Shown in pieces: positions 2,747 through 32,000 of a stretch of DNA of 32,000 nucleotides. The first letter of the stretch is position 1; every line of letters begins with the position of its first letter. Origin of the DNA: Saccharofermentans sp. (lineage in GTDB: Bacteria; Bacillota; Clostridia; Saccharofermentanales; Saccharofermentanaceae); the NCBI GenBank assembly GCA_045598005.1, contig JAZLLF010000021.1, forward strand, positions 19,952-51,951, in the 5' to 3' direction. A program made the position numbers and the translations under genes. The notes beneath the pieces were generated by a model. The model saw only the letters and a program-made list of their open reading frames with translations. It ran no database searches and was not told where the DNA came from.

Positions 2747-2751
2747 CTAAA

Positions 2752-6720: not shown

Positions 6721-6746
6721 GATGTTGGAAATAATTGAGATATAAT
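6717..6746 (+). promoter_or_regulatory. candidate sigma-A promoter of the large cluster (-35 TTTAGA, 18-nt spacer, -10 TATAAT)
   Basis: TATAAT at 6741-6746 and TTTAGA at 6717-6722. Downstream are RBS GGGAGG at 6766-6771 and ATG at 6780. Confidence 0.4.
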
Positions 6747-6779
6747 AGTAGAAGGGCACATCTTTGGGAGGTTTGTTTT

Positions 6780-8435: not shown

Positions 8436-8458
8436 TTTAAAGGAATTGTTGTTAAGAA

Positions 8459-9145: not shown

Positions 9146-9158
9146 GGTCGGAGGATTT

Positions 9159-13259: not shown

Positions 13260-13290
13260 TAATTAGTCTCCCCCTTAATGGAAGTAAACA

Positions 13291-13626: not shown

Positions 13627-13640
13627 CGAGGTTTTATTAT

Positions 13641-15491: not shown

Positions 15492-15525
15492 TAAATAATC
15501 AGACAGAATTATTATTCAGAGTTGT

Positions 15526-15590
15526 AAAAAATACATGTGAATGAAAAGTTTTTATGAACTTTTCCCCCCGCATGTATTTTTCTATTATTT
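15526..15590 (+). terminator. compound rho-independent terminator after the membrane RyR gene
   Basis: Outer arms AAAAAATACATG (15526-15537) and CATGTATTTTT (15571-15581) enclose an inner hairpin GAAAAGT-ttttatga-ACTTTTC, followed by a T-rich run. Confidence 0.55.
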
Positions 15591-15635
15591 TAAATATTAT
15601 TATAAACGGGGGATTTTTATTTTGAGGGGTACTAT

Positions 15636-17147
15636 ATGTCTTATCGTAAAAACTTGATTTGCTCTATTGCATTGATGATTATCTGCTCTGTTCTTGTATC
15701 ATGTGCAGGCACTCTTAATACCAAACTCGACAGAGATGGTAATCCTATTGATGAGAGTTCTGAAAGTATAACTTCAGAATCTGAAACATCTGAGACTACT
15801 TCTAGTACTACTACTTCAGAGACTACAACCAGCACTTCTGAATCTACTACTGAAACCAGTGAAACGTCAGAAACTTCTGAACCTGAAGATCCTACCCCAA
15901 CACCTATAGATCCAAATAATCTGCCTGAATACTATAATCTTGTGGAACTTGGATATACTCCACCAGTAGAAAATCAAAGTGCATATGGTTCATGTCAGAG
16001 TGAAACATTTACAACAATTATGGAAAGCCGACTTCTTGTTCAGGGAATACAGTCTGATATTTCAGAGTGGGCATTTTTCCATTGTCTGAATCACTATGGA
16101 TTCCATTATAGCTATGTTGGTGAGTCATCTCTGATAGCAGATGGTTATGCAGCTATTATTCCTGAATCTGCTGCTCCATATCCTGATGATTTTGTTTATG
16201 GTGATCGTACTGAAGGATATGTTCTTCCTGATCAGTATGTAAATCACCAGGATTATTCTGTAACAGATATTTATTACTTATCTGATGAATACATGAGTAA
16301 TGATGAGATTATTGAAGTAGCAAAGACATGGCTTTATAGAAACTATGCACTTGGTGCAAGTTTTGATTTCAGCGAAGAAGCATTTGATTTATATATGTCT
16401 TCTGATCAGCAGTCTTACTACTGCACAGATTCTCACAGAACGATTAATCATATGATGACTATCGTTGGATATGATGACAATTATCCAAAGGAGAATTTTA
16501 AGAGCACTCCATCACGCGATGGTGCTTTTCTTGTTCAGAATAGCTGGGGTACTGATTATTGGAATGGAACTGGCTTCTTCTGGATTTCTTATGATGACGC
16601 AATGATGTCAGACTTTGATCTGTTTACAGTAGAGGTTGTTTCAGGTGACAGTTACGACTATGTGGATTATTACGATGTAAATGCTCACTGGTCAGACTAT
16701 ACAGCTTCACTTAGTTCTTCATCTTCAACATGTGGAATTAAATTTCATGCGGATAATGCGCTTGATCTTGATGCAGTTGGAATTTATACAACAGTTCCAA
16801 ATGAGAGTTTTCAAGTTTATCTTGATGTATCTGGAAATATGGAACAGACAGTTCTTGTTGCTGAAGGAACAAGGCAGGATCGTGGTTTTTATCGTATTGA
16901 ACTGAATGATGTGTACCATATTGATGCAGGGACAGATTATTCGTTTGTAATTGTATACACGGGTCAGGTTGGTGAATATCTTATCCCTATGGACTGGATT
17001 TTTACTGCCAGTGCTGCATCTGATTTAACAATTGGTAGAACTTCGGGTGTAACTTTCGTATATATGAATGGTTCCTGGAGAGATATTACTTCTCTTGGTG
17101 ATCAGTACGGTAATATCTGTTTCAAAGTTTATGGACACAGGTCTTAA
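15636..17147 (+). CDS. secreted lipoprotein, papain-like (C1 family) cysteine peptidase with Ser/Thr/Glu-rich linker
   Basis: Lipobox LVSC (Cys23) after a basic/hydrophobic N-terminus. C1 catalytic blocks: QSAYGSCQSETF (Cys), NHMMTIVGYDD (His), VQNSWGTDYWNGTGFFWISYD (Asn-Ser-Trp-Gly). Confidence 0.75.
   Translation: MSYRKNLICSIALMIICSVLVSCAGTLNTKLDRDGNPIDESSESITSESETSETTSSTTTSETTTSTSESTTETSETSETSEPEDPTPTPIDPNNLPEYYNLVELGYTPPVENQSAYGSCQSETFTTIMESRLLVQGIQSDISEWAFFHCLNHYGFHYSYVGESSLIADGYAAIIPESAAPYPDDFVYGDRTEGYVLPDQYVNHQDYSVTDIYYLSDEYMSNDEIIEVAKTWLYRNYALGASFDFSEEAFDLYMSSDQQSYYCTDSHRTINHMMTIVGYDDNYPKENFKSTPSRDGAFLVQNSWGTDYWNGTGFFWISYDDAMMSDFDLFTVEVVSGDSYDYVDYYDVNAHWSDYTASLSSSSSTCGIKFHADNALDLDAVGIYTTVPNESFQVYLDVSGNMEQTVLVAEGTRQDRGFYRIELNDVYHIDAGTDYSFVIVYTGQVGEYLIPMDWIFTASAASDLTIGRTSGVTFVYMNGSWRDITSLGDQYGNICFKVYGHRS
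15753..15905 (+). repeat. coding low-complexity S/T/E(P) linker (imperfect GAAAC(N)TCTGA-type DNA repeats)
   Basis: Translates as ESSESITSESETSETTSSTTTSETTTSTSESTTETSETSETSEPEDPTPTP, lying between the lipobox and the peptidase domain. Confidence 0.6.
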
Positions 17148-17174
17148 GTGATATTAATTTTGGGTGAGATTTTT

Positions 17175-19319
17175 ATGAGAAAGTTTAAGGATATTTGTTT
17201 AAAAACTGTAGCGAGTCTGATTTCTGCTTTTATAGGATTGTCCGTTTATTCTGGAGTGTCAGGTAATTTTGTTGCTGCAGATCCAGTTGACACTATTTCA
17301 CGTGCTATTAATGTTGTTTATGATGATTCTGACAGCATGTATTTTTGTGGTGGTACTGAAGGATATGATGTAGATACATGGTGCCAGGCCAAGTATTCAA
17401 TGGAAGTATTTGCTGCCATGCTTGGCGCAAATGATACCATGAATATTTATTACATGAGTGATTATGACGAATCTGAATCTGCACCTGCAAGAATCAGTAT
17501 TTCAGGTAGTGATGATGTATCTGAAAATATTTCAAAGATTCATAATGAGACAACTACACCTGGTGGAACATCCTTGAATTCAATCCGTAAGGCTTGCTCT
17601 GATCTTGAATCAGCATCTGCTGATGAGAAGTGGCTTGTTGTTCTTACTGACGGTGTAATTGATGATAATCCTGTTTCTACCACTTTTGTAAATGAGTATT
17701 TCCATGGAAAATCAGATGATATAACTGTTTTGTTCCTTGCTATTGGTGAGTATTCAAGAACAATTATGACAGAACCTAATTATGGTATTTATAGTTTCCT
17801 TGCTAATTCAAACGATGAGATTTTCGATTATGTAATGCTTATGTGTAACTGGATCTATAGTGCCAATACACTTGATGTAAATGTTTCTACAGGTGAGTTT
17901 TCCACAGATCTTCCTTTGAAGCAGGTAATTGTATTTGCTCAGGGTGAAGATGTAACAGTTAACGGTATCGGTGCTTTGGAGCCTGACAGAGATGTTCAGA
18001 TTAATTATAGTGAATGTGATGCTGTAACACGTGATAATGAACCTGATACTTCACTTCACGGTACTGTTGCAACATTTATAAGTTCATTTGATCCAGGCAC
18101 ATATACTATTGATGCTACAAATGCTGAAACACTTCAGGTTTACTTTGTTCCTGATGTGGATATTATGGTTTCATTTACTGATACAAATGGAAATTCTGTT
18201 ATTAATGCTTCTGAACTTGAAGCAGGTTACTATAATTATGAGATTTCTCTTGTAAGAGGTGGGACTAACGAAGTAATTACTAATTCGACACTTCTTGGAG
18301 AACTTGCTTATTCTGTTAATGTGACAATCGGAGATTATGCAATCAGATATAATGATCCATCAGGCTCTATTCAGCTTGCAGGTGGAGACACTGAACTTGA
18401 GTTCCGTGTTAAGTTTTTGGGCTACAGCCAGGTGTCTTTGACTCATTCATACGTTGTAAATGTTCCTGAGGTTGTTTCTGGTAACAGCACTATTACTTTC
18501 GAAGTTGTTGATAATCCTGTTTTTGATGTGTCTTCAGAGGGCATTACTACAGGCGAAGGAATTAAGATTCATGCACTTATCAATGGACGTGAATTTACTC
18601 AGAGTGAATGGGATTTCCTGGATGTTCCAGTTATTACTTTTGGTAATGATGTAAATAACTTAAAACTTACTCCAACTATGCTTACTAAGAGTGACGAATT
18701 AGGAATTTTTGTTCTTGTTCCAACACTTGATGGTGAGCCTTCTTCATCATCTTATAAGGAATTAACTTATTCTATTTCAATTTCACAAAGTGCAGGTGAA
18801 CTTCAGACCTGGGAAGGCTCAATGGAAGGAAAGATTGAGTTTAATGATTTAAGAAGCTTTGGCGATCGTAATACCAGAGCAATCATCACTACTGTAGTTA
18901 TTGTTCTTTTGTTAGCATTTGCCATGCTTTATATGCCTTTTATTAAGCATTACATGCCAGGCATGAGTAAGTATCCTAGAATTAATATTTCCAACTATGC
19001 TACAGGTTCAGATTCTATTTCAAAGGGCGAAGTAACTATTGATATTTTGAGTACTATCCTTCCTGTTGTTCCTCAGAAGGGTAATATTTCCTTTATTCCA
19101 AGTTCAGTACCAATTCCATCTTTCAGAGTTAAAGCTGTTGGTAATGGCAGAATGGAAATCGAGAACGTAAAGGATTTTGCAAAGTATAATATTAGTGTCG
19201 GATCAAAGAATCTCGCTGAAGAAGTTAGAGAAAATGAGGGCGTAAAGGTAACATTAGGAGCTTCAACTACAATTGATACTGTATATAGGAAGACAGATTA
19301 TACTTGTGTTTTGAAGTAA
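17175..19319 (+). CDS. vWA-domain membrane protein, paralogue 1 (signal peptide - vWA/MIDAS - beta-rich region - TM - cytoplasmic tail)
   Basis: N-terminal signal MRKFKDICLKTVASLISAFIGLSVYSGV. MIDAS D50-D-S52-D-S54 (nt 17322-17336), GGTSLNS and VVLTDG. TM AIITTVVIVLLLAFAMLYMPFI (~18879-18945), then a ~125-aa tail. ATG 17175 follows GGGTGAG. Confidence 0.8.
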   Translation: MRKFKDICLKTVASLISAFIGLSVYSGVSGNFVAADPVDTISRAINVVYDDSDSMYFCGGTEGYDVDTWCQAKYSMEVFAAMLGANDTMNIYYMSDYDESESAPARISISGSDDVSENISKIHNETTTPGGTSLNSIRKACSDLESASADEKWLVVLTDGVIDDNPVSTTFVNEYFHGKSDDITVLFLAIGEYSRTIMTEPNYGIYSFLANSNDEIFDYVMLMCNWIYSANTLDVNVSTGEFSTDLPLKQVIVFAQGEDVTVNGIGALEPDRDVQINYSECDAVTRDNEPDTSLHGTVATFISSFDPGTYTIDATNAETLQVYFVPDVDIMVSFTDTNGNSVINASELEAGYYNYEISLVRGGTNEVITNSTLLGELAYSVNVTIGDYAIRYNDPSGSIQLAGGDTELEFRVKFLGYSQVSLTHSYVVNVPEVVSGNSTITFEVVDNPVFDVSSEGITTGEGIKIHALINGREFTQSEWDFLDVPVITFGNDVNNLKLTPTMLTKSDELGIFVLVPTLDGEPSSSSYKELTYSISISQSAGELQTWEGSMEGKIEFNDLRSFGDRNTRAIITTVVIVLLLAFAMLYMPFIKHYMPGMSKYPRINISNYATGSDSISKGEVTIDILSTILPVVPQKGNISFIPSSVPIPSFRVKAVGNGRMEIENVKDFAKYNISVGSKNLAEEVRENEGVKVTLGASTTIDTVYRKTDYTCVLK

Positions 19320-19324
19320 ATATC

Positions 19325-21541
19325 ATGCGTAAAATCAAAGAATCATTTGTAAAAGTAACTATCTTTATTTTGACAGTAGCAGTTTTGTTTCCAGCTTTTT
19401 TGGGAATAACTGCTACGCCTGTACTTGCCGATTCCGGAAATGGCATTAACAGAGTAATTAATGTCGTATTTGATGATTCCGGAAGTATGTATTACGATGA
19501 TTTTTCCATTACATCTCTTAAAAGATGGAGTCAGGCGTTATATTCATTGGAAGTATTTGCAGCAATGCTTGGACCAAACGATACAATGAATGTCTATATG
19601 ATGAGTGATTTCAGTCCTTATAGCAGTACTGACTTAAGCGAAAGTGCTATCGCTGCATTATCCGGTCCTAACTTTGTTCTTCATGGTTCTTCAAGCAGCG
19701 AAACTAACATTCAGACAATACACAGATTTACAAGTTACAGTAATGGTACTCCTTTTACTACAGTTCGTAAGGCGTTATATGATCTTGAGCATACTTCTGC
19801 TGATGATAAGTGGCTTGTTGTACTTACAGATGGTACTTTTCAGGAAAATGGTGGCGATTATCTTGAGCAGTCAAGAGTTGACCAGTATATTCAGGATAAA
19901 TCAGATGATGTAAAAGTATGTTGCCTTGCTCTTGCAGATGGTACATTGAATCTTCCAACTCAGGTTGAGAGCCAGAACATCTTTTCAAGTGAAGCTAATT
20001 CAGGCCATGAGATTCTTGTAAAAATTACAGATATTATTTCAAGAGTTTTTAATTTGAATAAACTTCAGATTAATAATGATGCTGTCTCTTTTAATCTTCC
20101 TATGTCAGAGCTTATCGTATTTGCTCAGGGAAGTAATGTTAATATTGGAAATATTACAGATTCTTCCGGAGGAAACTATTCAGGGCAACAGGTTGATGTC
20201 AGCTATCGAGCTGAAAGTAATTCAACGAGATATCCTGAAGCTCCAACTGATGATACCCTGAGAGGCTGTGTTTCAGTTTGCAGAGGTGATTTTGTACCTG
20301 GTACTTATAATATTGATGTTTCAGGCGCAGATACTGTAGAAGTTTTCTATAAGCCAAATATTGATATTCTTATAACTGCAGAAGATCAGAATGGAAATGT
20401 ATATATAGCAGATTCAAGTGTTCCTTCTGGCCAGTACACAATTACATATACTCTTGTAAAGGGTGGAACAACTGAGCCAATTGAGGATACTTCACTTATT
20501 GATCCGATTAACTATACTGCAACTATTGATGGTAATACATTTCAAAATGGTGATACCGTTCAGTTGGAAGAAGGCGATCATGCAATTGTTGTAGAAGGTC
20601 GTTATCTGGAAATTAACAGAATTACAGCTGAAGTTAATTTGACATGTAACCTTACAGCAGTTCCTGTTACTTTCGAAGTTTCTTCTTCAGATCCATATGA
20701 AATTGGCGCAGATTCTGTAGATACATCAAATCCAATAACTGTTCATGCCAAAATTGACGGAAGGGAGTTTACTCCTGAGGAATGGGCAGCTATGGGAATT
20801 CCTGAGGTTACACTCACAAAGAATGCCAGCAAGTATAAGCTTGTTAATCCTTCAATAGTTAAGACTGATGATGTTGGATATTTCGAAGTGTATTTTGAAG
20901 TTAAGGGTGCGCCTGCTGATGCTCTTTATACTGAGGCTTTATTCCAGCTTTCATACTCTGAACAGTGTGTTGAGGGCGAGCTTTGGGAAGGTTCTTTTGA
21001 AGGAACTATTGAATTTGACGATGAGAGATCTTGGTACGACAGATATAAGGATAAGATTCTTCTTGCAATCATTATTGCAGTTATTCTTCTTATTATTTTG
21101 ATGTATATGCCATTTGTTAAGCATTATCTTCCAAAGATGAAGAAGTATCCTACAATTGAAATTGAGAACAGAGCGTTGTTCAAAAATTCAACTTCAAAGG
21201 GATCAGTTAAGAAAGATATACTTACAACAATCCTTCCACTTGTACCACAGACAGGTACAATTACGTACATACCTAAGACTTCAGCTGTACCAAAAACTGC
21301 TCCTTTACGTGTAAGAGCTGTAGGTAACGGCAGGATGATAATAACAAACCAGTCTGTATTCGAGCAGAAGGGATGTCCTGTATCCTTTAGTGGCCGTTCA
21401 CTTATCAAAGATGAGTTTGATGAAGAAGGTACACCTAACAGGAAGCGAAAGCCAAAACCATATATGATGTCAGCAGGAACAGTAATTGAAGTAGATTATG
21501 CAAAGAAAAGGGAATACTATTCCTGTTGTCCTAGAAGATAA
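19325..21541 (+). CDS. vWA-domain membrane protein, paralogue 2
   Basis: Same architecture as paralogue 1. Signal peptide ends ...PVLA/DS. MIDAS VVFDDSGSMY, NGTPFTT, VVLTDG. TM ILLAIIIAVILLIILMYMPFV. Tail ends YYSCCPRR. ATG 19325 chosen over tracked TTG 19304 by analogy with paralogue 1 (MRK...). Confidence 0.8.
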   Translation: MRKIKESFVKVTIFILTVAVLFPAFLGITATPVLADSGNGINRVINVVFDDSGSMYYDDFSITSLKRWSQALYSLEVFAAMLGPNDTMNVYMMSDFSPYSSTDLSESAIAALSGPNFVLHGSSSSETNIQTIHRFTSYSNGTPFTTVRKALYDLEHTSADDKWLVVLTDGTFQENGGDYLEQSRVDQYIQDKSDDVKVCCLALADGTLNLPTQVESQNIFSSEANSGHEILVKITDIISRVFNLNKLQINNDAVSFNLPMSELIVFAQGSNVNIGNITDSSGGNYSGQQVDVSYRAESNSTRYPEAPTDDTLRGCVSVCRGDFVPGTYNIDVSGADTVEVFYKPNIDILITAEDQNGNVYIADSSVPSGQYTITYTLVKGGTTEPIEDTSLIDPINYTATIDGNTFQNGDTVQLEEGDHAIVVEGRYLEINRITAEVNLTCNLTAVPVTFEVSSSDPYEIGADSVDTSNPITVHAKIDGREFTPEEWAAMGIPEVTLTKNASKYKLVNPSIVKTDDVGYFEVYFEVKGAPADALYTEALFQLSYSEQCVEGELWEGSFEGTIEFDDERSWYDRYKDKILLAIIIAVILLIILMYMPFVKHYLPKMKKYPTIEIENRALFKNSTSKGSVKKDILTTILPLVPQTGTITYIPKTSAVPKTAPLRVRAVGNGRMIITNQSVFEQKGCPVSFSGRSLIKDEFDEEGTPNRKRKPKPYMMSAGTVIEVDYAKKREYYSCCPRR

Positions 21542-21778: not shown

Positions 21779-24016
21779 ATGAACTATTCAGTATCTATTA
21801 ATCGTAAAAAATGTGCAGCACTGTTTGTTGTACTTATTTATACATTGATTTCTTTTGTCTGCATTACTATTCCTGCGGAAGATGTATTGGCAGTTCGTAC
21901 AGAACCAAATCGTGTGATTAATGTCGTATATGATGATTCCGGTAGTATGTACATTAATACTAATCGTTGGAGTCAGGCTCTTTATTCATTGGAAGTATTT
22001 GCTGCGATGCTTGGCGATAACGATACAATGAACGTTTATTACATGAGTAATTATTCAACAAACTCAGATACATTTGATTATACTGGTGATGTTTCTGGTT
22101 ATGAAGGTCCATCTCTTGTGCTTCATGGAAGCAGTGGAGCAGAGAATAATGTAGCTGCTGTTCATAACAGAATTACTCAGAATGCTACAGGTACTCCTTG
22201 GGCAGCTGTAAGAAAGGCTCAGTATGATCTTGAGAATACATCAGCAGATGAGAAGTGGCTTGTAATTCTTACTGATGGTGCTTTCGAAGATGGAAGTATT
22301 CCTGTTTCAGATATGGACATGTATTTGAATCAGAAGTCAGATGATATTAGTGTTGTCTGTCTTGCTCTTGCAAATGTATCATCAACTCCTACAAACAATG
22401 AGGCAAATAATATTTATGTAGATACTGTTTCTGGATCAGAAAGTATTTTAAGTAAGATTACAGATGTAATTACAAGAGTATTTAATTCAAATAAGCTTCC
22501 AAATATTAGTAATAATAGTGTTTCTTTTGGACTTCCAATGAGTGAACTCATTGTATTTGCACAGGGTGCAGATGTTGAGATTAATGGAATTTCTGATTCA
22601 AATGGAAATTCATATTCAGCACGTCCAGTAGATGTAATCCATAGAGACGATTCGAATGCGGCTAACTATCGAAATGCTACTACAGATACTTCTCTTAAAG
22701 GTCAGCTTGCTATTTTCCGTGGCGATTTTAATCCAGGTACATATAATTTTGATGTTACTGGAGCTCAGACACTTGAAGTATTCTATAAGCCAAATGTTGA
22801 GATTATGGCTTTCCTTACTGATCCTGTAACAGGTGAAGAGATACCTGCAGATTCAGCTATTTATCCAGGTACATACACAGTTGAGTTTGTATTTGTTAAG
22901 GCTGGTACAACAGAGAAGGTTGAAGATATTTCACTTATTGAGCCAGTTGAATATTATGCAACATTCGATGGAAATACAGAGATTTCAAGTGGTGATACTG
23001 TTGAGATTGATATAGGTAATCACTCAATTCATGCTGAAGCGAGATTCCTTGACTATAACGTAGTAGAGACAGATATTGATGTTGTTTGTACTGCTGAACC
23101 AACAAACACTCCAACACCTACACCTGAAGGTTCTGTAATACCAGTAACTTTTGAGGTTATCAGTAGTGATGATTATGTGGTAAGCGAAGATTCAGTTGAT
23201 ACTTCAGAGCCAATTATAGTTCATGCTCTTCTTGATGGAAGAGAGTTCACATCTGAAGAGTGGGCACTCATGACAGAACCGGAAATTGAGCTTACAACTA
23301 ATGCCAGAAAGTATAAGCTTACAAATCCTCAAATTACAAAGCTCGATACAATTGGAGATTTTGAAGTAACATTTGAAGTTAATGGCGCTCCAGCAGATGA
23401 CACTTATGATTCAGCAGTATTTAGTCTTACATATCGTCAGGAAATTGATGAATGGACTACATGGGCAGGCGATTATGAAGGCGATATTAATTTTAGCGAT
23501 GATCGTTCGTGGTTAGAAAGATATAAAGATAAGTTAATTGCTGGCATAATTATCGGTCTTGCAGCTCTTCTCATTCTTTTATATATGCCATTCATTAAGC
23601 ATTATCTTCCTAAGATGAAGAAGTACCCAACTGTTGAGATTGATGATCGCGCTATTTTTAAACAGTCGACTTCAAAGGGAGCAGTCAAGAAAGATATATT
23701 AACTACAATTCTTCCTTTGATTCCACAGACAGGAACAATTAATTATCTTCCATCGACTGCGTCAGTTCCAAAGACAGCCCCTCTTAAAGTTAAGGCTGCT
23801 GGTGGCGGAAAGATGATAATTACAAATCAGTCAGTATTTGAACAGAAGGACTGTCCTGTAACGTTCAGTGGACGCACACTTGTGAAAGATGATTTTGATG
23901 TAGATAACACAAAGAAGAAGCGTAAATCGAAGCCATATTATCTTACAGGTGGCACAGTGATTGAAGTTGATCATACGAAGAAGAAGATAACATATTCATG
24001 TTGTCCAAAAAGATAA
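21779..24016 (+). CDS. vWA-domain membrane protein, paralogue 3
   Basis: Very similar to paralogue 2: NRVINVVYDDSGSMY, RWSQALYSLEVFAAMLG, WLVILTDG. It has an extra TNTPTPTPEG linker. TM LIAGIIIGLAALLILLYMPFI. Tail ends TYSCCPKR. RBS is GAGGGA. Confidence 0.8.
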   Translation: MNYSVSINRKKCAALFVVLIYTLISFVCITIPAEDVLAVRTEPNRVINVVYDDSGSMYINTNRWSQALYSLEVFAAMLGDNDTMNVYYMSNYSTNSDTFDYTGDVSGYEGPSLVLHGSSGAENNVAAVHNRITQNATGTPWAAVRKAQYDLENTSADEKWLVILTDGAFEDGSIPVSDMDMYLNQKSDDISVVCLALANVSSTPTNNEANNIYVDTVSGSESILSKITDVITRVFNSNKLPNISNNSVSFGLPMSELIVFAQGADVEINGISDSNGNSYSARPVDVIHRDDSNAANYRNATTDTSLKGQLAIFRGDFNPGTYNFDVTGAQTLEVFYKPNVEIMAFLTDPVTGEEIPADSAIYPGTYTVEFVFVKAGTTEKVEDISLIEPVEYYATFDGNTEISSGDTVEIDIGNHSIHAEARFLDYNVVETDIDVVCTAEPTNTPTPTPEGSVIPVTFEVISSDDYVVSEDSVDTSEPIIVHALLDGREFTSEEWALMTEPEIELTTNARKYKLTNPQITKLDTIGDFEVTFEVNGAPADDTYDSAVFSLTYRQEIDEWTTWAGDYEGDINFSDDRSWLERYKDKLIAGIIIGLAALLILLYMPFIKHYLPKMKKYPTVEIDDRAIFKQSTSKGAVKKDILTTILPLIPQTGTINYLPSTASVPKTAPLKVKAAGGGKMIITNQSVFEQKDCPVTFSGRTLVKDDFDVDNTKKKRKSKPYYLTGGTVIEVDHTKKKITYSCCPKR

Positions 24017-24056: not shown

Positions 24057-27000
24057 ATGAACGCACCAACACTATTGATCGGTCTGGGTGGTACAGGAAG
24101 CAAGATTATTTCAAAAGTATCTGCAATGGTATCTCCAGAGGAGAGAAACAATATCTCATTTGCTGTATTTGATACAGATATTAATGAGCTACGTGTAATT
24201 CAGGAAACACATCCATTTATTAAGACAATTCAGACATCTACACGTCAGGCTGTAGGTGAGTATCTTAATATTGATACACATGCCAGAGATACATGGTTCC
24301 CAGTTAATGGAATTCTTAATGGTAAGGCTCTTTCAGAGGGAGCTGGACAGGTAAGATCTATTTCAAGACTTGCTCTTGAGACTGCAATCAGATCAGGTAA
24401 GATGGAGCCACTTCATGAGGCTGTTCAGGAGCTTTATAAGGTTGAGGAAGATAAGCAGGAGCAGGCTTTAAGAGTTGTAATTGTAAGTTCTCTTGCTGGT
24501 GGTACTGGTTCAGGACTTATTCTTCCAGTAGCTTTATATGTTAGAAATTATCTTAAGACTCACTTCCGTTTGAGCGCTAACATTACACGTGGTTTCTTTA
24601 TTCTTCCAGAAGTATTCTATGGTGTAATTAAGGGACCAACAGAGAGAAATAATCTTAAGGCAAATGCTTATGCTGCAATCAGAGAGCTTGATGCATTCCT
24701 TATGAAGAATGACGATACTCTCCACGAGAGATATAAGGATTCAGTTGCTATTCACTTCCCTAAGGTAGCTTCTGAAGGTTATGAAGAGTATGACGTAAGA
24801 CCTTATGATTTCTGCTTCCTCTTTGATGCTCAGAACGCTGAAGGTGGAAAGCTCAATTCATTTGATCAGTATTTGGATCACGCCGCTAACTGTATCTACG
24901 CTCAGTCAATTGGACCTATGAATAAGCGTAGTAACTCTTCTGAGGATAATACAATCCGTAAGCTTGCTAAGGAGCATGGCCGTAACAGATATGCTGGTGC
25001 TGGTGTATCTATGCTTGTATATCCATTTGAAGACATTAAGAAGCTCTTTGCTCTTAAGTGGGCTAAGCAGAGTGTTTCTTCTTTGTGGCTTAAGTACGAT
25101 AACCTCTATAAGGAGTACGTAAAGGACAGAGCTTCTCTTCGTGAGGAGGGTCTTTCAATTGGTGATAACCAGACACTTGCAGAGTACTATGTAAGTCAGG
25201 TTGAGTCTGATAATGCTGCTGATGTACCTTTTGCAAGAGCAATCTATGTTGCATCTGGTAACTACCGTAATGGTGTTACACGTGAGACAGATAAGTGGGA
25301 TATGTACGTTGCTGAACTTATGAATAAGATTGGTGAGGACATTTCTTCTACTGCTTCAAGCCTTGATTCACGTGCAAGAGACGTTAGATCACGTATTAAT
25401 GAGCTTGGTCAGGATAAGGACTGGTCAACATTTATTACTGTTTATAACGATATGCAGGAGTACGCGCTCCTTTCAGAGCAGTATGTAACAAATGTTTCTC
25501 AGACAATTGCACATTCACTTTTCAGAGGATCACATACAAGTGGTGCTAATAACTGCGAGCAGCCATATAAGCTTGAGTACTATATCGCTCCAGAAGGAAA
25601 GTACATGCATCCAAACGCTGCAAGATATCTCCTTATCAAGATTCTTGAGCGCATGAAGGAAACAAAGATGTCTGTAGAGCAGGGCAAGGTAAAGAGCAAG
25701 AAGTTCTTTGAGACATTCGAAAAGAATACTTTCGATGATACAAAGACAGATGCTGAGGAGACAGTTGATGATCTCGCTAGAAGAAAGAAGTCTCTTAATA
25801 CTAAGGCTGATATGACTCAGATGGCAGATGACTTCTCTAACTACCTTACAATTGTTAAAAAGTATCAGGCACAGTGTGCTCAGGATTACGTACTCATGAA
25901 GGGTATCGAATATATTGAAACACTTATCAATTCTTATGAGCAGTTCTTTATGTCTTTCGAGAGCAAGGTTGAAGGCATGGATAAGGAAATTGCAAATATT
26001 TATAAGAAGTATAGTGATACTAAGGGTACAACTGTAAGATACGTATCTGCCAGCAAGGATTGCCTTGATAAGATGTACGAAAAGAAGCCTTACACAGGTG
26101 GTGTTGTTTCTATCGATTCAAAGCTTGCACAGACAATTTATGATCAGGTTCTTGAGTATTCACTCTTAAGAGAGAAGCCAAATGCTAACAGATACTTCAA
26201 TAAGCTCTTCGATGATGGCATTATTGGATACTTCGAGGATAGCGTTATGAACAGCTACGGTGCTGAACTTGATATTGATGCTATTACTGCTTTGCAGAAC
26301 GAAGCTGATTATATTGGTGGTTTTGATGATGCTGATGATGCTGATAAGCTCATTATTCAGTATGTTAAGAAGGTAATCGAGGATACAAGAAAGCTTGCTT
26401 GTCCATTTATTGAGAGACCTCTTGGTGAGACAACAGATCCAATTAACTCATGTACATTTAATAAGTCACTTAAGCCTGATAAGGGTGATGAGTCACCTAT
26501 CTCACAGATTATCAGAAGTGAACTTCTTGATTACGGCGGAGAGGCTGATGAGGATGTACCAAGAAAGATGATTATGTTCTATTCTTCTTTCTATGGTTTG
26601 AGAGCTAATGATCTTAGTAAGTTTGCTCCACCTGAGAAGACAGAAACATATAACAGAACTGGCGGTGAATACTTCAAGGCTTACTTCGATCTTATTCAGG
26701 GAATCCACCCATCTTCACAGAAGAGTAAGGGAATTTCTCCACACTGTGATCGTTGGTGGCATATCATTACAAAGATGCCAGATCTTGATGAAGAGAATCA
26801 GGCTAAGCAGGAGTATGATATCTATTCTGCATTCTTCTGGGCTTTCTACTACAGATTTGTAAGCCTTAAGAGTGAGAATAATAAGCAGATTTATAAGTTC
26901 TCAAAGCTCCTTCTTGATATGGATGATGACACTCTTATCGTTTCTAACGGTACAGATTGTGACAAGTTCTACGAGGTTCTTGACGCTATTGCTATCTATC

Positions 27001-27515
27001 CAGAGCTTACAGCTAAGATTCTTAGTAAGGTAAATAGTGATCTTGCTGACGATATTGATGAAGGTGTATCACTTGAGGAATCTTATTTCATGACTCAGCT
27101 TGCTAACTTTGAGATTGATGAGCCACTTCTTGGTGCCAAGGAGACAAAGTCTCATTGTATCTTTGATATTCCACTTCTTATGAAGAAGTCAGCTACACCT
27201 GACATCTATTACGAAGAGGATGTTGTAAACATGCTGAAGGTTTCAATCCAGGAGATTAAGCGTTATATTTCTAACTTCTGTTCTCCAAGTGATTTACCTG
27301 TAGCTGTAAAGACAGTTATCCTTGATCAGTTCGCTAAGCATCTTGAGTCACTTAAGATTGAAGCTAAGTCAAACAAGCTTGTTTATACAGAGCCACTCTT
27401 CGAGAAGACATGTGATGTTATTTATAACGCACTTTATGAGATCGATTGTAAGAGAGATGCTCGTAAGATTTATGAGACAATGCAGAATCTTAAGAGACAG
27501 TCAGCACAGGACTAA
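24057..27515 (+). CDS. giant tubulin/FtsZ-superfamily GTPase-like protein (Pfam Tubulin_2-like, from memory)
   Basis: N-terminal LLIGLGGTGSKI (T1-like G-rich loop, nt 24081-24101), FAVFDTD (compare FtsZ NTD) and SSLAGGTGSGLILP (tubulin signature GGGTGSG-like, A147-G153, nt 24495-24515). About 900 further residues have no TM. Strong RBS AAGGAGG. Confidence 0.75.
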   Translation: MNAPTLLIGLGGTGSKIISKVSAMVSPEERNNISFAVFDTDINELRVIQETHPFIKTIQTSTRQAVGEYLNIDTHARDTWFPVNGILNGKALSEGAGQVRSISRLALETAIRSGKMEPLHEAVQELYKVEEDKQEQALRVVIVSSLAGGTGSGLILPVALYVRNYLKTHFRLSANITRGFFILPEVFYGVIKGPTERNNLKANAYAAIRELDAFLMKNDDTLHERYKDSVAIHFPKVASEGYEEYDVRPYDFCFLFDAQNAEGGKLNSFDQYLDHAANCIYAQSIGPMNKRSNSSEDNTIRKLAKEHGRNRYAGAGVSMLVYPFEDIKKLFALKWAKQSVSSLWLKYDNLYKEYVKDRASLREEGLSIGDNQTLAEYYVSQVESDNAADVPFARAIYVASGNYRNGVTRETDKWDMYVAELMNKIGEDISSTASSLDSRARDVRSRINELGQDKDWSTFITVYNDMQEYALLSEQYVTNVSQTIAHSLFRGSHTSGANNCEQPYKLEYYIAPEGKYMHPNAARYLLIKILERMKETKMSVEQGKVKSKKFFETFEKNTFDDTKTDAEETVDDLARRKKSLNTKADMTQMADDFSNYLTIVKKYQAQCAQDYVLMKGIEYIETLINSYEQFFMSFESKVEGMDKEIANIYKKYSDTKGTTVRYVSASKDCLDKMYEKKPYTGGVVSIDSKLAQTIYDQVLEYSLLREKPNANRYFNKLFDDGIIGYFEDSVMNSYGAELDIDAITALQNEADYIGGFDDADDADKLIIQYVKKVIEDTRKLACPFIERPLGETTDPINSCTFNKSLKPDKGDESPISQIIRSELLDYGGEADEDVPRKMIMFYSSFYGLRANDLSKFAPPEKTETYNRTGGEYFKAYFDLIQGIHPSSQKSKGISPHCDRWWHIITKMPDLDEENQAKQEYDIYSAFFWAFYYRFVSLKSENNKQIYKFSKLLLDMDDDTLIVSNGTDCDKFYEVLDAIAIYPELTAKILSKVNSDLADDIDEGVSLEESYFMTQLANFEIDEPLLGAKETKSHCIFDIPLLMKKSATPDIYYEEDVVNMLKVSIQEIKRYISNFCSPSDLPVAVKTVILDQFAKHLESLKIEAKSNKLVYTEPLFEKTCDVIYNALYEIDCKRDARKIYETMQNLKRQSAQD

Positions 27516-27552: not shown

Positions 27553-29511
27553 ATGTATTCTGTACTTATTCAGAATCAGAGAACAATGGATTTGTTTAAT
27601 GATTTCCAGCCATTGTTTTCTGAAGCATTAAATGATGACAGAATAGGTGTATGTAAGTGGTTTGAAAATGGAACCACTATTGACACAGCACTTCCTGAAA
27701 TTAGAGATTTAACTGATGATAAAGAGGAATGGCGTGCCATTATCGTTAATGTTGTTGACGATAATGGTGTGTCCAGTTTCTCTTCAAGTGCGATTAATCC
27801 ATTTGATTTTGACATTAATAAGCTTCCTGATGACGGAGAAGATCATGACAATGATCCCGTTATTGAAAGTCCTGTTCCGCTAATTAGACTTACACATATG
27901 CTTGGTGGTTTCCCTGAGTTTGATGTTCGTTATGAAACTAAGGTAAAGCATGAGCATGGTAAGGCTGACAGAGATATTTATGTTGTGAAGGATTGTCCTG
28001 TTCGTGAGGCAACTCATGAGAAACTTGTTCGTAAATACAGATATAGTGGTAAGGCGCCTTCTTCTATTATTCTTGTAACAGTAAGAGAAAAACTCGAAGA
28101 GAACAGACATACTCTTAGTAAGCATTGGCTTAATCATATGGAATCTGATGCAGATGAGTTCTGGAAGCGTAATATGTATCCACATATTTGCCGTTTCCTT
28201 GTTTTTGATAAAGAAGACTCAGGACCAGTTCAGAAGGATGCTGATGATTTCAGATTCTGGTCATCGGTTGCTCTTCTTGCAACAAACGACATTGATGCAG
28301 GCGTTTTGCAGGCATATCGTCTTTATAATTTGAACGCTAGAATTAATCGTTCAAATATGGAAGAGTTTTTGCAGAATTACACAGACCGACTTCGTGATGC
28401 AAAGCGTGCTTTCGAGTATCAGATTAAAAGCGATATTAAGAATATGGTTTCCAAAGAGGAGACTTTGCCAGAAGATATTGAGATTAAGGTTCCTGTAGCA
28501 ATTAAGGTTCCCAAAATTGATGATATTGAGATTAAGTCCAAGTCTCTTCCTTTTCTTGCGGATAGCAGCAATATGGATATTCGCGTATGGAATGAGAGAA
28601 CTTCAAGAGCTGAAACTAATATGGCGAAGGCTGTTAAGGAAGCAGAAAGAACACTTGATCGTACTGTAAACAGAATGAGAAGTTCACTTGAGTATGATAA
28701 AGATGCTGTTGAGCCACTTAATAAGTATCAGGAAGAGGATCTTTCTGATCTTATCAGCAAGATTTATGCCAATATCGTAGATGTTCAGGGTCAGCTTCCT
28801 TCAAAGGATATTAACGAGGATAAAGAATTAAACAGGACATCAGAAAATGTACGTGAGTTCCTTAAGTCTCGTATAACAAAATCTGCTGCCGGTTTTACAC
28901 TTAGTGTTGTTGCTGGTCTTATGGTTTTATCTTTTATTCCTGCAATTATCTATTTCTTTGTTGATAAGAGGGGTTTCCCAGAGGTAGTTGGACTTACTTT
29001 CCTTTGCTCACTTCTTTTTGTTGCTCTTTGCGCTTTTATTGTTGTTCTTATTCAGAAACTTAAGTTGAAAGAACTTTTAAAAGCATATAATGAACAACTT
29101 AAACTTAAAATCAATAAGATGATGGGTAATGCAAGTATTTACTCTGAATATATTTCAAGTATTGCATCTCATACCAGAGGCAAGACTTATCTTGAGCATT
29201 CTTCAAATATTAAAACACTTGGAGATGATGTTCATAGCACTAAATATAAGCATATTACTGCTATTAACGCTCTTCTTAACAAGGTTAAAAAGTGGAATAA
29301 CGCATACCATCTTAAGGTTGATTTTGCTGCGGCACGACCTAATTACATGATAGAAGTTGATTCTTCTGTTAAGCCATCTGAAAACAGACTTTATCAGTTT
29401 GATTTTGGTAAGACATATTCAGTTGAAATTAATGATTCAGGTATGAATATTGAGGCACCTTTTAACTTTGTAAGTAACTTAGATATTGAAAGGGAGGAAC
29501 TGTATGGATAA
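27553..29511 (+). CDS. hypothetical protein with charged, probably helical region and C-proximal TM hairpin
   Basis: RBS GGAGGTGA. Two hydrophobic helices (AAGFTLSVVAGLMVLSFIPAIIYFFV and VVGLTFLCSLLFVALCAFIVVLIQ) sit about 200 aa from the C-terminus. A charged, heptad-like stretch precedes them. No motif recognised. Confidence 0.65.
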   Translation: MYSVLIQNQRTMDLFNDFQPLFSEALNDDRIGVCKWFENGTTIDTALPEIRDLTDDKEEWRAIIVNVVDDNGVSSFSSSAINPFDFDINKLPDDGEDHDNDPVIESPVPLIRLTHMLGGFPEFDVRYETKVKHEHGKADRDIYVVKDCPVREATHEKLVRKYRYSGKAPSSIILVTVREKLEENRHTLSKHWLNHMESDADEFWKRNMYPHICRFLVFDKEDSGPVQKDADDFRFWSSVALLATNDIDAGVLQAYRLYNLNARINRSNMEEFLQNYTDRLRDAKRAFEYQIKSDIKNMVSKEETLPEDIEIKVPVAIKVPKIDDIEIKSKSLPFLADSSNMDIRVWNERTSRAETNMAKAVKEAERTLDRTVNRMRSSLEYDKDAVEPLNKYQEEDLSDLISKIYANIVDVQGQLPSKDINEDKELNRTSENVREFLKSRITKSAAGFTLSVVAGLMVLSFIPAIIYFFVDKRGFPEVVGLTFLCSLLFVALCAFIVVLIQKLKLKELLKAYNEQLKLKINKMMGNASIYSEYISSIASHTRGKTYLEHSSNIKTLGDDVHSTKYKHITAINALLNKVKKWNNAYHLKVDFAAARPNYMIEVDSSVKPSENRLYQFDFGKTYSVEINDSGMNIEAPFNFVSNLDIEREELYG

Positions 29512-32000
29512 CGCACGTTATGTGTTAACAGTTCTATTAGTTATAACGGCAATTAATCTGCTTTTAAGTTTGCTTCAGAACCTTATTAACGGAAGAAAAC
29601 TTAGAAGAGTTCGCCATGTCCCACTTATCCCGGGATCTTTTGTTCTGGCTGCTGCTGGCTGTGGATTAATGATTTATTACTATGAGAAATTATTTGCAAT
29701 TTATAATGAACTCGCAATTCTTCGAGGCATTATAAATGCAGATATTGTAGTAATTAATATTGTGCTGCTTGCAGCTTTTGTTCTTGTGAAACTAATCGTA
29801 AGACCTATAGTTGTAGCACTTTGTAAAGATGAGTCACTTCTTGAGAAGTTTTCTTATGGTTTCTACTGGTTTGATGATTTTTATGGCGAGTGGTTCCTCA
29901 TGGAGAAGTGGGTTAAATTCAGGAAGTTTTTCCTGACTGTTTATATCGCTTCAATTGTTGCTGGAAGCATTGTTATTTCAATCACAATGATTAAGGGACC
30001 ATATTCAAAGCTCTATTTCCTTTCTGTTCCTGCGGTTATGATGATCGTTCTTGGAGAGATGTATGGTTATATTAACGGCCAGACTAAGGAAGAGTTTGAG
30101 CACAGCATTATGGGTGATAACTCTGTTTCAAAGAGAATTCACAATTATTTCAAGCTACGTCCAGTATTAGAGAAAATTTTTGAAGAACCACTTATCTCTG
30201 CAAATAGTGGTAATGAATTTGTTGGAAGAGAAACACCAGTCGATCTTATGAAGGAGATGGCAGAATCTGAAGACAAGATCGATAAGGTTGTTGCTGACTT
30301 TTTCCAGATTAATGACAGATATAAGAATGCGGAAGTTGATTATTTTGATGCAACAAGAAAGATGATGCACAGACAAAATATCATCTTCAACAATCCTTTC
30401 TATAAGGATCTTGAGACATATATAACACTTCCACTTTCTGCTTCACTTCTTTCAAAGAAGAATGTTGTTGTGCTTTGTGGACGCCAGTCTGTTGCAGAAG
30501 ATGTTAAAGAGTGGCTCCATAATCTTTTGGCTGGTTACAGCCATATTGATAGTCTCTGGCGAGTTGGTTTCTTCAGCGAGCAGGATCCTTCTTTTGAGGT
30601 AGGAATTCTTACATTTACTCAGATTTATGATAAGAACGTTCTTAATGTTAATAAGGAATTCTTAAAGCAGGCGGATTTCTGTCTTATTATTGAGCCTTCA
30701 GTAATGCTTAATACAAGTCAGGTTGCATTAAGTATTCTTGGTAATGAGATGGCTACAAATGGTAAGCCAGTTTATTGCGTTTGTGACAGAAGTTCGGATG
30801 GTCTTGTTGATACATTATCCCATGTATTGAGATCAGAATTTGTAGAAGTAGTTGCTATGCCAGTTCCTCGCTGCAGTTATACAGGTATGACCTGGGATGC
30901 TGATGGTGACTTTAAGCGTCAGGAGTTGTTTGACAAGCAGACACGTTATCTCGGTAATGGTGTTGAACTTGCTGCTGTTGCTGTTCGTAATCAGGTTTCA
31001 AGTGCAAGATGGTACAGTGAATCCAAGATTCCACTTCGTGATGTTAAGTGGATTACAGGTCAGAGTTATGCAACTATCTGCCGTTATATGAACACGCCTG
31101 TACAGCAGACAAGTATCTATGACAAAATTGAATTTATTCCAAATCTTTGGAGTGCTTCACAGGAGAAAGAGCAGTTTATTATTGTTGAAGATGAGTTCTG
31201 TAATCTTTATAGCATGATGAGAGTATTCCTCTCACGTGGTACAGATCAGTCATTCATTAATGTTATGTCAGAGAATTACCTCTTACGTGACTATATGCGT
31301 TGTAATAAGCAGCTTTTCATTGCTAATCCACATGCAGTTCCATCTTTTGTTCCAGATTATGCAAAGACAGAGCGTAATACTCTCCTTAAGCTCCTTATTA
31401 TGATGTCTATGCATCAGGTTAGCGAAAGCGAAATCGCTGCCGAATTCCGCCTTGCAGGAATTGATGATTCCGATATTCCTACAAAGCTTTCTGAACTTTT
31501 ACGCACATATACATTTGCATCCGATAAGATTATCAAGCCTACTAATGAGAAAAGTGAGATTGATGAACTTGGAATCTTCACAACAAATTTTTACAGCATT
31601 TCTGATGAAGATTTTGATAGTAACTTTGAGGATACACTCAAAAACGCTTATTACGTTATTGAGGATGAAGTTGATGAGAAGAGTTATATCGATGCCAAGT
31701 TATTCAGTCATGTAACACAGACTATCCTTCCAGGCCAGTATGTGACTTATGACGGTAAGTACTACGTTGCAAAATATGTAGCACCTTCAAGTGGAGTAAT
31801 TTTGAGAAGACCTTCTGATCTCTTTGAAGGACGTAAGTACTATAGACAGATCCGTAAGTATAACATTCTCAAGGCTGCACCAGATATGACACCTGTTTTT
31901 GAAGGTGTTTATTCTGATGACAGAGTTGTGTCATGTAAGACAATTACAGATATTGAATATGCAGTATATAAGACAGATTTCTCTGTTGATACAACTGGAT
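29504..32000 (+). CDS. large polytopic membrane protein, 3'-truncated by the window edge (>832 aa)
   Basis: Absent from the ORF track because no stop is reached. I translated 29504-31999 codon by codon and found no stop. AGGGAGG at 29491-29497 lies 6 nt before the ATG, and ATG 29504 overlaps the upstream stop (ATGGATAA). N-terminal ~190 aa hold 4-5 hydrophobic helices; the rest is soluble with no motif recognised. Confidence 0.7.
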   Translation, partial: MDNARYVLTVLLVITAINLLLSLLQNLINGRKLRRVRHVPLIPGSFVLAAAGCGLMIYYYEKLFAIYNELAILRGIINADIVVINIVLLAAFVLVKLIVRPIVVALCKDESLLEKFSYGFYWFDDFYGEWFLMEKWVKFRKFFLTVYIASIVAGSIVISITMIKGPYSKLYFLSVPAVMMIVLGEMYGYINGQTKEEFEHSIMGDNSVSKRIHNYFKLRPVLEKIFEEPLISANSGNEFVGRETPVDLMKEMAESEDKIDKVVADFFQINDRYKNAEVDYFDATRKMMHRQNIIFNNPFYKDLETYITLPLSASLLSKKNVVVLCGRQSVAEDVKEWLHNLLAGYSHIDSLWRVGFFSEQDPSFEVGILTFTQIYDKNVLNVNKEFLKQADFCLIIEPSVMLNTSQVALSILGNEMATNGKPVYCVCDRSSDGLVDTLSHVLRSEFVEVVAMPVPRCSYTGMTWDADGDFKRQELFDKQTRYLGNGVELAAVAVRNQVSSARWYSESKIPLRDVKWITGQSYATICRYMNTPVQQTSIYDKIEFIPNLWSASQEKEQFIIVEDEFCNLYSMMRVFLSRGTDQSFINVMSENYLLRDYMRCNKQLFIANPHAVPSFVPDYAKTERNTLLKLLIMMSMHQVSESEIAAEFRLAGIDDSDIPTKLSELLRTYTFASDKIIKPTNEKSEIDELGIFTTNFYSISDEDFDSNFEDTLKNAYYVIEDEVDEKSYIDAKLFSHVTQTILPGQYVTYDGKYYVAKYVAPSSGVILRRPSDLFEGRKYYRQIRKYNILKAAPDMTPVFEGVYSDDRVVSCKTITDIEYAVYKTDFSVDTTG

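Follow-up and report, generated by a model that had tools for sequence, protein, structure and literature searches.

All characterised proteins of the tubulin/FtsZ superfamily polymerise. One of the most divergent branches of this superfamily is the large FtsZl1 family, which was described computationally by Makarova and Koonin (2010, Biol Direct 5:33), who proposed a role in membrane remodelling for it. They reported that genomes bearing FtsZl1 usually carry a normal FtsZ too, and that FtsZl1 operons contain von Willebrand factor A (vWA) proteins, protein kinases, a novel GTPase, OmpA-like proteins and lineage-specific membrane proteins. Their Additional file 5 gives the gene order vWA, FtsZl1, B5 and B12, the last being a membrane zincin, for Ruminococcus lactaris (RUMLAC_01526-01530) and 'Bacteroides' capillosus (BACCAP_04121-04124). 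Neighbourhoods of tubulin, vWA and GAP1/GTPase genes in Firmicutes and Actinobacteria have been described as nucleoside triphosphate (NTP)-dependent conflict systems (Kaur et al. 2020, eLife 9:e52696), and in a phylogeny from 2023 the Tubulin_2 sequences, as the family is named in Pfam, were used as outgroup only. Here we analyse an FtsZl1 gene located at positions 24057-27515 (forward strand, as are the other genes from position 6735 onwards) of a 32,000-nucleotide stretch from Saccharofermentans sp. (assembly GCA_045598005.1, contig JAZLLF010000021.1, positions 19,952 to 51,951), hereafter called the window. As shown by synteny, this tubulin-like gene is the second gene of a conserved core, vWA-FtsZl1-B5-B12, and the genes that follow the core in orthologous loci suggest that it might belong to an effector-export apparatus.

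Translation of the open reading frame (ORF), which starts with ATG, yields a protein of 1152 residues. Its Pfam match to Tubulin_2 (PF13809) has an E-value of 4.5e-60 and a score of 204 bits (cut-off 27), with residues 6-340 aligned to positions 1-355 of the 356 in the profile, and this confirms the family that a preliminary description of the gene had named. The Tubulin profile PF00091 gave a sub-threshold match only (E 8.5e-5, residues 136-214), and NCBIfam returned no match to the tubulin-like protein, nor to the vWA and B5 proteins discussed below. Because the Pfam match, the AlphaFold2 model with its Foldseek comparison, the hhalign alignment with FtsZ, the conservation of motifs, and the published architecture and gene order all agree, it is near certain that the product is a member of FtsZl1, and its placement in the tubulin/FtsZ superfamily can be retained. 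It is not a new family, as FtsZl1 and its cassette were published in 2010. With the window protein as query, 2503 representatives of 50%-identity clusters were found at E<=1e-3 and 503 at E<=1e-30, and 1488 homologues had E<=1e-5 among 8000 candidates scored. The nearest sequence cluster is at most 65% identical, and the full-length homologues listed share 53-65% identity. The protein has neither a signal peptide nor a convincing transmembrane (TM) helix and is predicted to be cytoplasmic. Literature searches yielded computational treatments only and no experimental work on any FtsZl1/Tubulin_2 member, in line with the earlier statement that the family has no characterised member.

The tubulin/FtsZ-like GTPase domain (24072-25076) spans residues 6-340, as delimited by Pfam. 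It contains the T1 loop GLGGTGS (residues 9-15, within IGLGGTGSK from residue 8), DTD (39-41), a T3-like segment EGAGQVRSISRLA (94-106), the T4 loop SLAGGTGSG (145-153) and a T6-like FLFDAQN (254-260), so that the reading frame and the motifs are as originally claimed. The T4 signature reads AGGTGSG at residues 147-153, with the first glycine of GGGTG(S/T)G replaced by alanine. Conservation was counted over 106 non-redundant homologues that are 32-60% identical to the query; in this set GLGGxGS, DTD, EGAGQVRxISRLA and the GGTGSG core of T4 are at least 90% conserved, and N260 at least 70%. Judged from these sequences, the nucleotide-binding loops T1, T3 and T4 are intact.

Residues 1-420 were modelled with AlphaFold2 on the basis of 40 homologues. 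The model has a mean predicted local distance difference test score (pLDDT) of 68 and a predicted template modelling score (pTM) of 0.60, and its order of strands and helices agrees with that of the FtsZ N-domain, with extra inserts. When this model was compared with the Protein Data Bank (PDB) using Foldseek, all 50 matches listed were TubZ, FtsZ, CetZ or tubulin, with probabilities of 0.98-1.00, a best E-value of 1.2e-5, TM-scores by target length of 0.22-0.47 and sequence identities of 9-20%. Since only tubulin/FtsZ relatives were returned among the matches listed, the predicted fold is of the tubulin type and not another Rossmann or P-loop fold. A profile of 246 family members was also compared, by means of hhalign, with a small FtsZ alignment and with tubulin, the sequences of both being entered by hand. 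This gave 83.9% probability (E 7.7e-6) for FtsZ versus 54% for beta-tubulin, and the confidently aligned columns comprise T1, S2 (DTD versus NTD), S3, T3 (EGAGQ versus GAGAN), T4 and S5 only. Past strand S5 the alignment with either FtsZ or tubulin is unreliable, and T6, H7 and T7 could not be mapped by sequence. The preliminary description had considered the T1-T4 spacing closer to that of eukaryotic tubulin, but the best structural matches are TubZ and FtsZ and hhalign favours FtsZ over beta-tubulin; the long distance between the two loops is better explained by family-specific inserts, which were already noted in 2010 (Makarova and Koonin).

The C-terminal ~770 residues (25197-27512) consist of long coiled-coil-like helices followed by mixed alpha/beta modules. 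In the AlphaFold2 model of this region the pLDDT is 82.3 and the helices measure 40-70 residues. A Foldseek search of the C-terminal 772 residues against the PDB found no structural relative (best E 0.31, probability at most 0.23), and the family sequence profile found no relative in the PDB either, apart from one chance antibody match. This part of the protein, ~800 residues in the earlier count, had been called unique, but the full-length architecture is conserved across the family down to ~27% identity.

In FtsZ, the T7 'synergy' loop after helix H7 holds the catalytic acidic residue. A candidate for such a loop in the window protein is GPMNKRSNSSEDN (24912-24950, residues 286-298), directly after the predicted core helix 269-285. 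S294, E296, D297 and N298 of this S-x-E-D-N loop are at least 90% conserved in the 106 homologues, and the loop has a pLDDT below 50. Pfam found no FtsZ_C or Tubulin_C match in the protein. The single best structural match being TubZ, and the cassette sometimes lying beside integrases, a conventional cytoskeletal role might be considered, either as an extra FtsZ paralogue for division or as a TubZ-like DNA-segregation motor of a mobile element. We regard this as very improbable: a TubR-like or centromere partner is missing, membrane-protein genes flank the gene in every case, the protein lacks FtsZ_C and Tubulin_C domains, and no relatives were found in the viral contigs scanned, while the plasmids scanned gave only distant matches to the N-domain (at most 30% identity), on megaplasmids. 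Moreover, a normal FtsZ is usually present in these genomes as well (Makarova and Koonin 2010).

The conservation of the cassette was assessed by scanning one genome per species with an alignment of B12, which resulted in 46 loci, mostly from gut and rumen Lachnospiraceae, Oscillospiraceae and Ruminococcaceae, and also from Solobacterium, an Eggerthellaceae metagenome-assembled genome (MAG) and a Myxococcales MAG. All 46 species-level loci, like all metagenome loci examined, share the order vWA-FtsZl1-B5-B12 as far as their contigs extend, and in every related locus the tubulin-like gene is immediately preceded by a vWA gene and followed by B5. The neighbourhoods upstream of the core are mutually unrelated, and include a TIR-rich island, an AAA/FtsH-like gene, housekeeping genes and tyrosine integrases. 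Metagenome orthologues with 56-65% identity show the same core block, then a gene for an FtsK_SpoIIIE protein of ~1,160 residues and a ~92-residue gene.

The vWA gene that had been noted as the flanking gene with a membrane tail is present, and is the third of three tandem paralogues. Paralogue 1 (17148-19319, 723 residues) is 35% identical to paralogue 3 and has the same topology; paralogue 2 (19304-21541, 745 residues, with the true start probably an ATG at ~19325) is 54% identical to paralogue 3; and paralogue 3 (21779-24016, 745 residues), which ends 41 nucleotides before the tubulin-like gene, has a signal peptide, a vWA domain with the metal ion-dependent adhesion site (MIDAS) motif DDSGS, a beta-rich region, a TM helix at residues 586-604 and then a lysine-rich tail of ~140 residues. 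According to hydropathy, each of the three has an N-terminal signal-like segment, the DDSGS MIDAS, a beta-rich region and one TM helix near residue 590. From these features we take the vWA proteins to be type-I surface proteins with an extracellular MIDAS vWA domain, and the lysine-rich tail would be cytoplasmic. Pfam gave a faint VWA_2 match for paralogue 2 only; the orthologous vWA gene was assigned to COG2304 by Makarova and Koonin (2010), and DxSxS is found in 35 of 40 members of the vWA family. Orthologues of the vWA proteins are ~45% identical in the vWA part and ~31% elsewhere, compared to 53-65% for the tubulin-like protein, and this low conservation fits surface exposure. Special conservation of the tail across orthologues was considered and rejected, since the tail is ~31% and the vWA domain ~45% identical; between paralogues 2 and 3 the cytoplasmic tail is 73% identical and the ectodomain 53-56%.

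The number of vWA copies differs between loci: the gene is triplicated in tandem in the window, most related loci show a single copy in the flank retrieved, and two vWA genes encoding ~735 residues each are present in R. lactaris. The 237-nucleotide gap between paralogues 2 and 3 contains no inverted repeats. At a related metagenome locus (L008, 6093-7545), a 1,453-bp segment with a tyrosine recombinase gene and 24-nucleotide inverted repeats at its ends (TTCGTGAAGTAAGTTCCTTGACGA and TCGTCAAGGAACTTACTTTACGAA) lies ~335 bp upstream of the vWA gene, and has the opposite orientation in another assembly (compare L010; 98.4% identity). This segment looks like a phase-variation switch before the cassette; the window has no equivalent of it.

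Downstream of the tubulin-like gene lies B5 (27553-29511), which encodes 652 residues without a known domain, comprising a soluble N-terminus of ~440 residues, two TM helices (452-500) and a soluble C-terminus; apart from the TM helices the protein is predicted to be cytoplasmic. B12 (29504-32000) is truncated by the end of the window, which contains the first 832 of ~1430 residues, with 4-5 N-terminal TM helices. In the orthologues of B12, which are ~1,430 residues long, CxxC..CxxC and the zincin motif HExxH (HELTH) are found close to the C-terminus. B12 appears to be a polytopic membrane protein whose large Zn-ribbon/zincin region faces the cytoplasm. The profiles of B5 and B12 gave no match in the PDB. 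The stop of B5 and the start of B12 overlap by 8 nucleotides (ATGGATAA, 29504-29511), which bears out the earlier observation of a coupled pair of membrane-protein genes, the second of which leaves the window. From the predicted topologies it follows that most of the mass of the system would be cytoplasmic and that only the vWA proteins would project outward. Promoter-like sites between 13000 and 32000 were not enriched over shuffled sequences, and terminator-like sites in this region number 18 versus a shuffle mean of 8.9 (~2x). All of these lie inside genes, hence no terminator separates the genes of the cassette. The 5' part of the B5 coding region contains a perfect-looking 20-bp stem with a 3-nucleotide loop (27731-27773), without the U-tract typical of a terminator.

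Loci of the window's sub-clade have a further module after the core, as a rule separated from it by a few dozen bases at most or overlapping it. This module consists of a gene for a soluble EccC/EssC-like FtsK-family ATPase, a pair of genes for helical-hairpin proteins of ~95 residues, genes for hairpin-domain proteins with variable toxin-like C-termini, and small candidate immunity genes. A full-length FtsK-like gene comes directly after B12 in 18 loci; in 2 others the contig stops within the gene, and a further 7 contain short FtsK-like ORFs. Every FtsK-like homologue whose context was looked up sits behind a vWA-FtsZl1-B5-B12 cassette. The profile of the FtsK-like protein matched, in the PDB, EccC of T. 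curvata (4nh0, 3e-17), YukB of B. subtilis (9qks, 1.5e-10), EssC (5fv0/4lya, 1e-8) and EccC5 (4e-8), and the DNA translocase FtsK with just 9e-3. In NCBIfam the top matches were EccCa, EssC and EccCb, at scores far below the cut-offs (82 versus 509 bits). No TM helix is predicted in the protein, and its single Walker A motif lies at residue ~526; that it might comprise three FtsK domains, of which just the central one is active, was dismissed, since hhalign detected no internal duplication. In the divergent cassettes of seven loci (L032, L033, L039, L046, L049, L051 and L055) a transglutaminase-like (papain-fold) protein of ~410-570 residues is encoded after B12 and a full FtsK-like gene is missing, and in L032 and L033 the transglutaminase-like gene is preceded by an ORF of ~200 residues that resembles the N-terminus of the FtsK-like protein.

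In all 17 ATPase loci with at least 700 nucleotides of downstream sequence, two helical genes follow, belonging to the clusters c6 (~93 residues) and c5 (~100 residues). The c5 proteins have an invariant central LGPH turn, and their best member scores 25.9 bits against the Pfam family T7SS_ESX_EspC (gathering score 23.5); 7 of 15 c5 members match EspC at E<=0.01, and weaker matches to LXG and WXG100 were found. When c5 and c6 were compared by hhalign, the probability was 45% only. The c5 domain also forms the N-terminus of proteins of 279-361 residues that lack a signal peptide and have mutually unrelated C-termini, in which the motifs HEFGHNIDY, NGRHRILAA and SHHIP can be seen by eye. One neighbouring ORF matches the Pfam family 'Papain fold toxin 1, glutamine deamidase' (2.8e-9) and is followed by a small ORF, and another, with an ADP-ribosylating exotoxin domain (ADPrib_exo_Tox), occurs in one assembly and is missing from an otherwise collinear one. 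This difference, between L058 and L059, is strain-level variation of a toxin cassette. The inserted exotoxin-domain ORF and a 61-residue ORF lie at ~14250-15140, between the hairpin genes and an EspC-like gene of 136 residues. The gene layout matches that of polymorphic toxin loci served by a type VII secretion system (T7SS).

The ATPase, the hairpin pair, the hairpin-headed toxins and the candidate immunity genes that follow the core have led us to propose that, together with the core, they form a type-VII-like effector-export apparatus in which FtsZl1 is a GTP-regulated cytoplasmic scaffold, a reading to which we give a probability of roughly 0.4. To consider the cassette, the soluble EssC-like ATPase and the LGPH hairpins as an unrecognised type-VII-like system of gut Clostridia, with a tubulin-superfamily GTPase as core structural or regulatory subunit, is a more doubtful step. 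In the proposed mechanism, we infer GTP-dependent assembly of the tubulin-like protein at the membrane, as the preliminary description did: FtsZl1 would bind GTP and self-associate on the cytoplasmic side of the membrane, where the vWA tails could nucleate or position it, and would scaffold or gate a membrane complex of B5 and B12. It would also recruit the ATPase, which has no TM helices, and the ATPase would feed hairpin-tagged toxins to the channel. The fast-evolving vWA ectodomains, triplicated in the window, might contact the cell wall or a target. If correct, this would be the first secretion apparatus known with a tubulin/FtsZ homologue, and the first function assigned to FtsZl1, in hosts that are abundant gut and rumen Clostridia, where antagonism between bacteria is relevant to community structure. 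As far as our searches show, the coupling of FtsZl1 to an EssC-like ATPase and toxin-like genes has not been described before, and no published link between FtsZl1/Tubulin_2 and T7SS or polymorphic toxins was found in the literature.

The role published for the family is a different one, namely a machine for membrane remodelling or vesicle formation in which FtsZl1 polymers, together with vWA and other membrane proteins, deform the cytoplasmic membrane (Makarova and Koonin 2010). That characterised tubulin/FtsZ proteins polymerise, and that all partners are membrane-associated here too, agrees with this role. However, the proposal rests solely on the membrane association of the neighbours, it leaves the EssC-like ATPase, the hairpin proteins, the toxin-like genes and the zincin unexplained, and the elements with which FtsZ forms filaments (the C-terminal domain and a clear T7) are not recognisable, an objection that was already raised by a reviewer of the 2010 paper. 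We therefore think membrane remodelling improbable. The synteny turns the remodelling idea into a hypothesis that can be tested genetically, i.e. the export of hairpin-tagged toxins by an EssC-like ATPase.

Upstream of the vWA genes the window contains a series of tightly packed, possibly accessory genes (6735-17147; Pfam, PADLOC). The first encodes a 566-residue protein without an assigned family. It is followed by a PP2C phosphatase (8459-9145; Pfam) and a multidomain protein of 1366 residues (9159-13259) that combines a Ser/Thr kinase, which PADLOC matches to PD-T4-6/MkoA-like kinases, with a Rossmann-like GxGxxG region, an RyR-like segment that shares homology with the TM-RyR proteins and, at the C-terminus, a Card1-like PD-(D/E)xK nuclease. 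A TerY-P triad, consisting of a cytoplasmic TerY vWA protein, a PP2C phosphatase and a kinase, was considered and rejected, as the vWA proteins of the window are extracellular type-I membrane proteins by prediction. The kinase and the PP2C phosphatase are missing from most orthologous loci. Next come an RyR protein (13291-13626), an RyR protein with 4 TM helices (13641-15491) and a papain-like lipoprotein (15636-17147) with the lipobox LVSC, an S/T/E-rich linker, a papain-family C1 peptidase and a lectin-like domain. The lipoprotein gene may be translationally coupled to the first vWA gene, as its stop codon and the vWA start are immediately adjacent (17147/17148). The remainder of the window, 1-6673, holds housekeeping genes, for a GT2/GtrA glycosyltransferase, CorA, two divergent MatE transporters, a polysaccharide deacetylase and a peptide deformylase; the gene-dense island begins at 6735, and the GC content is uniform at ~36.5% on both sides.

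Several of these neighbours recur elsewhere. TM-RyR proteins of ~600 residues, in which 3-4 TM helices at the N-terminus are combined with an RyR domain at the C-terminus, are encoded upstream or downstream of the cassette in 8 other loci (L016, L017, L021, L024, L031, L035, L042 and L055). TIR proteins, in which this domain is N-terminal and the C-terminus varies (HD, LRR or other), are found downstream in L012, L015, L024, L031, L042, L055, L057 and L058, and one with an N-terminal TIR domain upstream in L001. A CARF protein with a PD-(D/E)xK nuclease occurs in L004 and L019 (PADLOC, 1.5e-32). Finally, a cluster of 2-TM proteins of ~705 residues (c7) recurs in 11 loci; that it might be a divergent vWA paralogue was rejected by hhalign.

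Such neighbours suggest another explanation, in which the cassette is an intracellular conflict system of the anti-phage or abortive-infection type. The tubulin-like NTPase and the vWA protein would then form a regulated, threshold-setting assembly that, once triggered, recruits or activates TIR proteins, nucleases, channel-like TM proteins and peptidases, and the c5 domain would be an effector adaptor and not a secretion tag. In agreement with this, the neighbourhoods of Kaur et al. (2020) include an extracellular vWA protein with TM helices. Furthermore, TIR proteins with HD or LRR C-termini and the CARF-PD-(D/E)xK nuclease recur beside the cassette in unrelated genomes, the window kinase is fused to a Card1-like nuclease and has PD-T4-6/MkoA-like matches, and the cassette lies in variable islands beside integrases. 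However, PADLOC has no model that matches the tubulin-like, vWA, B5 or B12 proteins (nor the PP2C protein), and the GAP1 and GTPase genes that define the published tubulin systems are absent, no GAP1-like or GTPase domain being present in any ORF of the window or among the recurrent gene clusters of the 46 loci. In addition, the ATPase is closest to motors of protein secretion, no relatives were found in the viral contigs scanned, and the toxin-like ORFs follow the pattern known from exported polymorphic toxins, in that they vary between strains and have small immunity-like ORFs behind them. For these reasons we consider a conflict system, the main alternative to export, rather unlikely; if it were one, it would be an unusual envelope-coupled immune system.

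Several results weigh against the export proposal as well. A role in intracellular defence agrees equally well with the TIR, CARF-nuclease and kinase-nuclease genes in the neighbourhood. Since B12 is truncated at the end of the window, genes for the ATPase, hairpins and toxins would lie outside it, and the presence of the ATPase module after B12 at this locus is deduced from orthology. The nearest orthologous loci (64-65% identity) all carry the ATPase, and one FtsK-like protein is encoded on an NCBI contig of 60,395 nucleotides, which is also the length of the contig with the window's tubulin-like protein, so that the locus probably continues likewise. In 13 loci, mostly with more divergent cassettes, there is no FtsK-like ATPase, and some of these have the transglutaminase-like gene instead, so the four-gene core must have a function that is independent of the ATPase. 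In more distant FtsZl1 clades the partners are GTPases, kinases or OmpA proteins (Makarova and Koonin 2010; Kaur et al. 2020). Since the core also occurs without an ATPase and partners differ between FtsZl1 clades, different output modules may be attached to the vWA-FtsZl1 pair, which would then serve as a regulated assembly platform of a general kind. As regards the scaffold itself, the assignment of residues 286-298 in the model as T7 loop is that of an unproven candidate, and past residue ~307 AlphaFold2 predicts helices and one beta-hairpin, so that the C-terminal beta-sheet domain of FtsZ and tubulin is absent, in agreement with the description of FtsZl1 in 2010. With the canonical FtsZ C-domain absent and T7 unproven, canonical head-to-tail polymerisation is uncertain. 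The resemblance of the downstream module to T7SS is also incomplete. The FtsK-like ATPase lacks the TM helices, the FHA domains and the three recognisable P-loop domains of EssC/EccC. The assignment of c5 to WXG100/EspC is weak (NCBIfam WXG100_ESAT6 E 0.005-0.03; EsxA in the PDB E 0.05, amid generic coiled coils), and c5 has no WxG motif, its conserved turn being LGPH. A Pfam family for a YukD/EsaB-like component was not reported for any called gene in the loci examined.

When compared with known systems, the window protein shares with FtsZ, TubZ, CetZ and tubulin a Rossmann-like GTPase fold, the T1, T3 and T4 loops and a GGTGSG-type signature, but it differs in its large inserts between T1 and T4, in the ~800 extra residues without a structural relative, in the lack of an FtsZ_C/Tubulin_C domain and in a T7 that is not identifiable by alignment. 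It agrees with FtsZl1 as described by Makarova and Koonin (2010) in that the N-terminal FtsZ-like GTPase domain can be aligned only from T1 to about H5, in the long helices and alpha-rich C-terminus, and in the vWA gene directly upstream, whereas the 2010 listing ends at B12 and does not contain the EssC-like ATPase, the hairpin proteins and the toxin-like genes. The GAP1-N2 GTPase-centric conflict systems (Kaur, Burroughs, Iyer and Aravind 2020) also have a tubulin-domain protein with a coiled-coil/alpha-helical C-terminus and a membrane protein with an extracellular vWA domain, likewise in Firmicutes, with kinase, PP2C and vWA themes. Their GAP1 gene and their one or two genes for TRAFAC GTPases with N-terminal Zn-ribbons are absent here, and the B5, B12 and EssC-like ATPase of the cassette are not part of these systems as described.

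Compared to T7SSb and T7SSc-j, the cassette ATPase differs by its single recognisable P-loop domain, and by the lack of TM and FHA segments, the hairpin proteins have no WxG and match T7SS families weakly, and YukD, EssB and EsaA are missing; a YukD/EsaB component is also absent from T7SSd (Garrett et al. 2024). No described T7SS contains a tubulin-like protein, and the words 'tubulin' and 'FtsZ' appear nowhere in the catalogue of T7SS variants (Garrett et al. 2024) or in the survey of polymorphic toxins (Zhang et al. 2012). On the other hand, the orthologous loci carry an FtsK-family ATPase that is closest to EccC, EssC and YukB, with paired helical-hairpin proteins of ~95 residues encoded directly beside it, and toxins with an N-terminal hairpin and variable C-termini, like the LXG toxins. 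The vWA surface protein, with its signal peptide, beta-rich region and C-terminal TM helix, resembles TsdI, a protein of T7SS variants with a signal peptide, an Ig-like region and a C-terminal TM helix, and the vWA, PP2C and kinase genes of the window parallel the vWA, Ser/Thr-kinase and PPM-phosphatase components that occur in T7SSc-e (Garrett et al. 2024).

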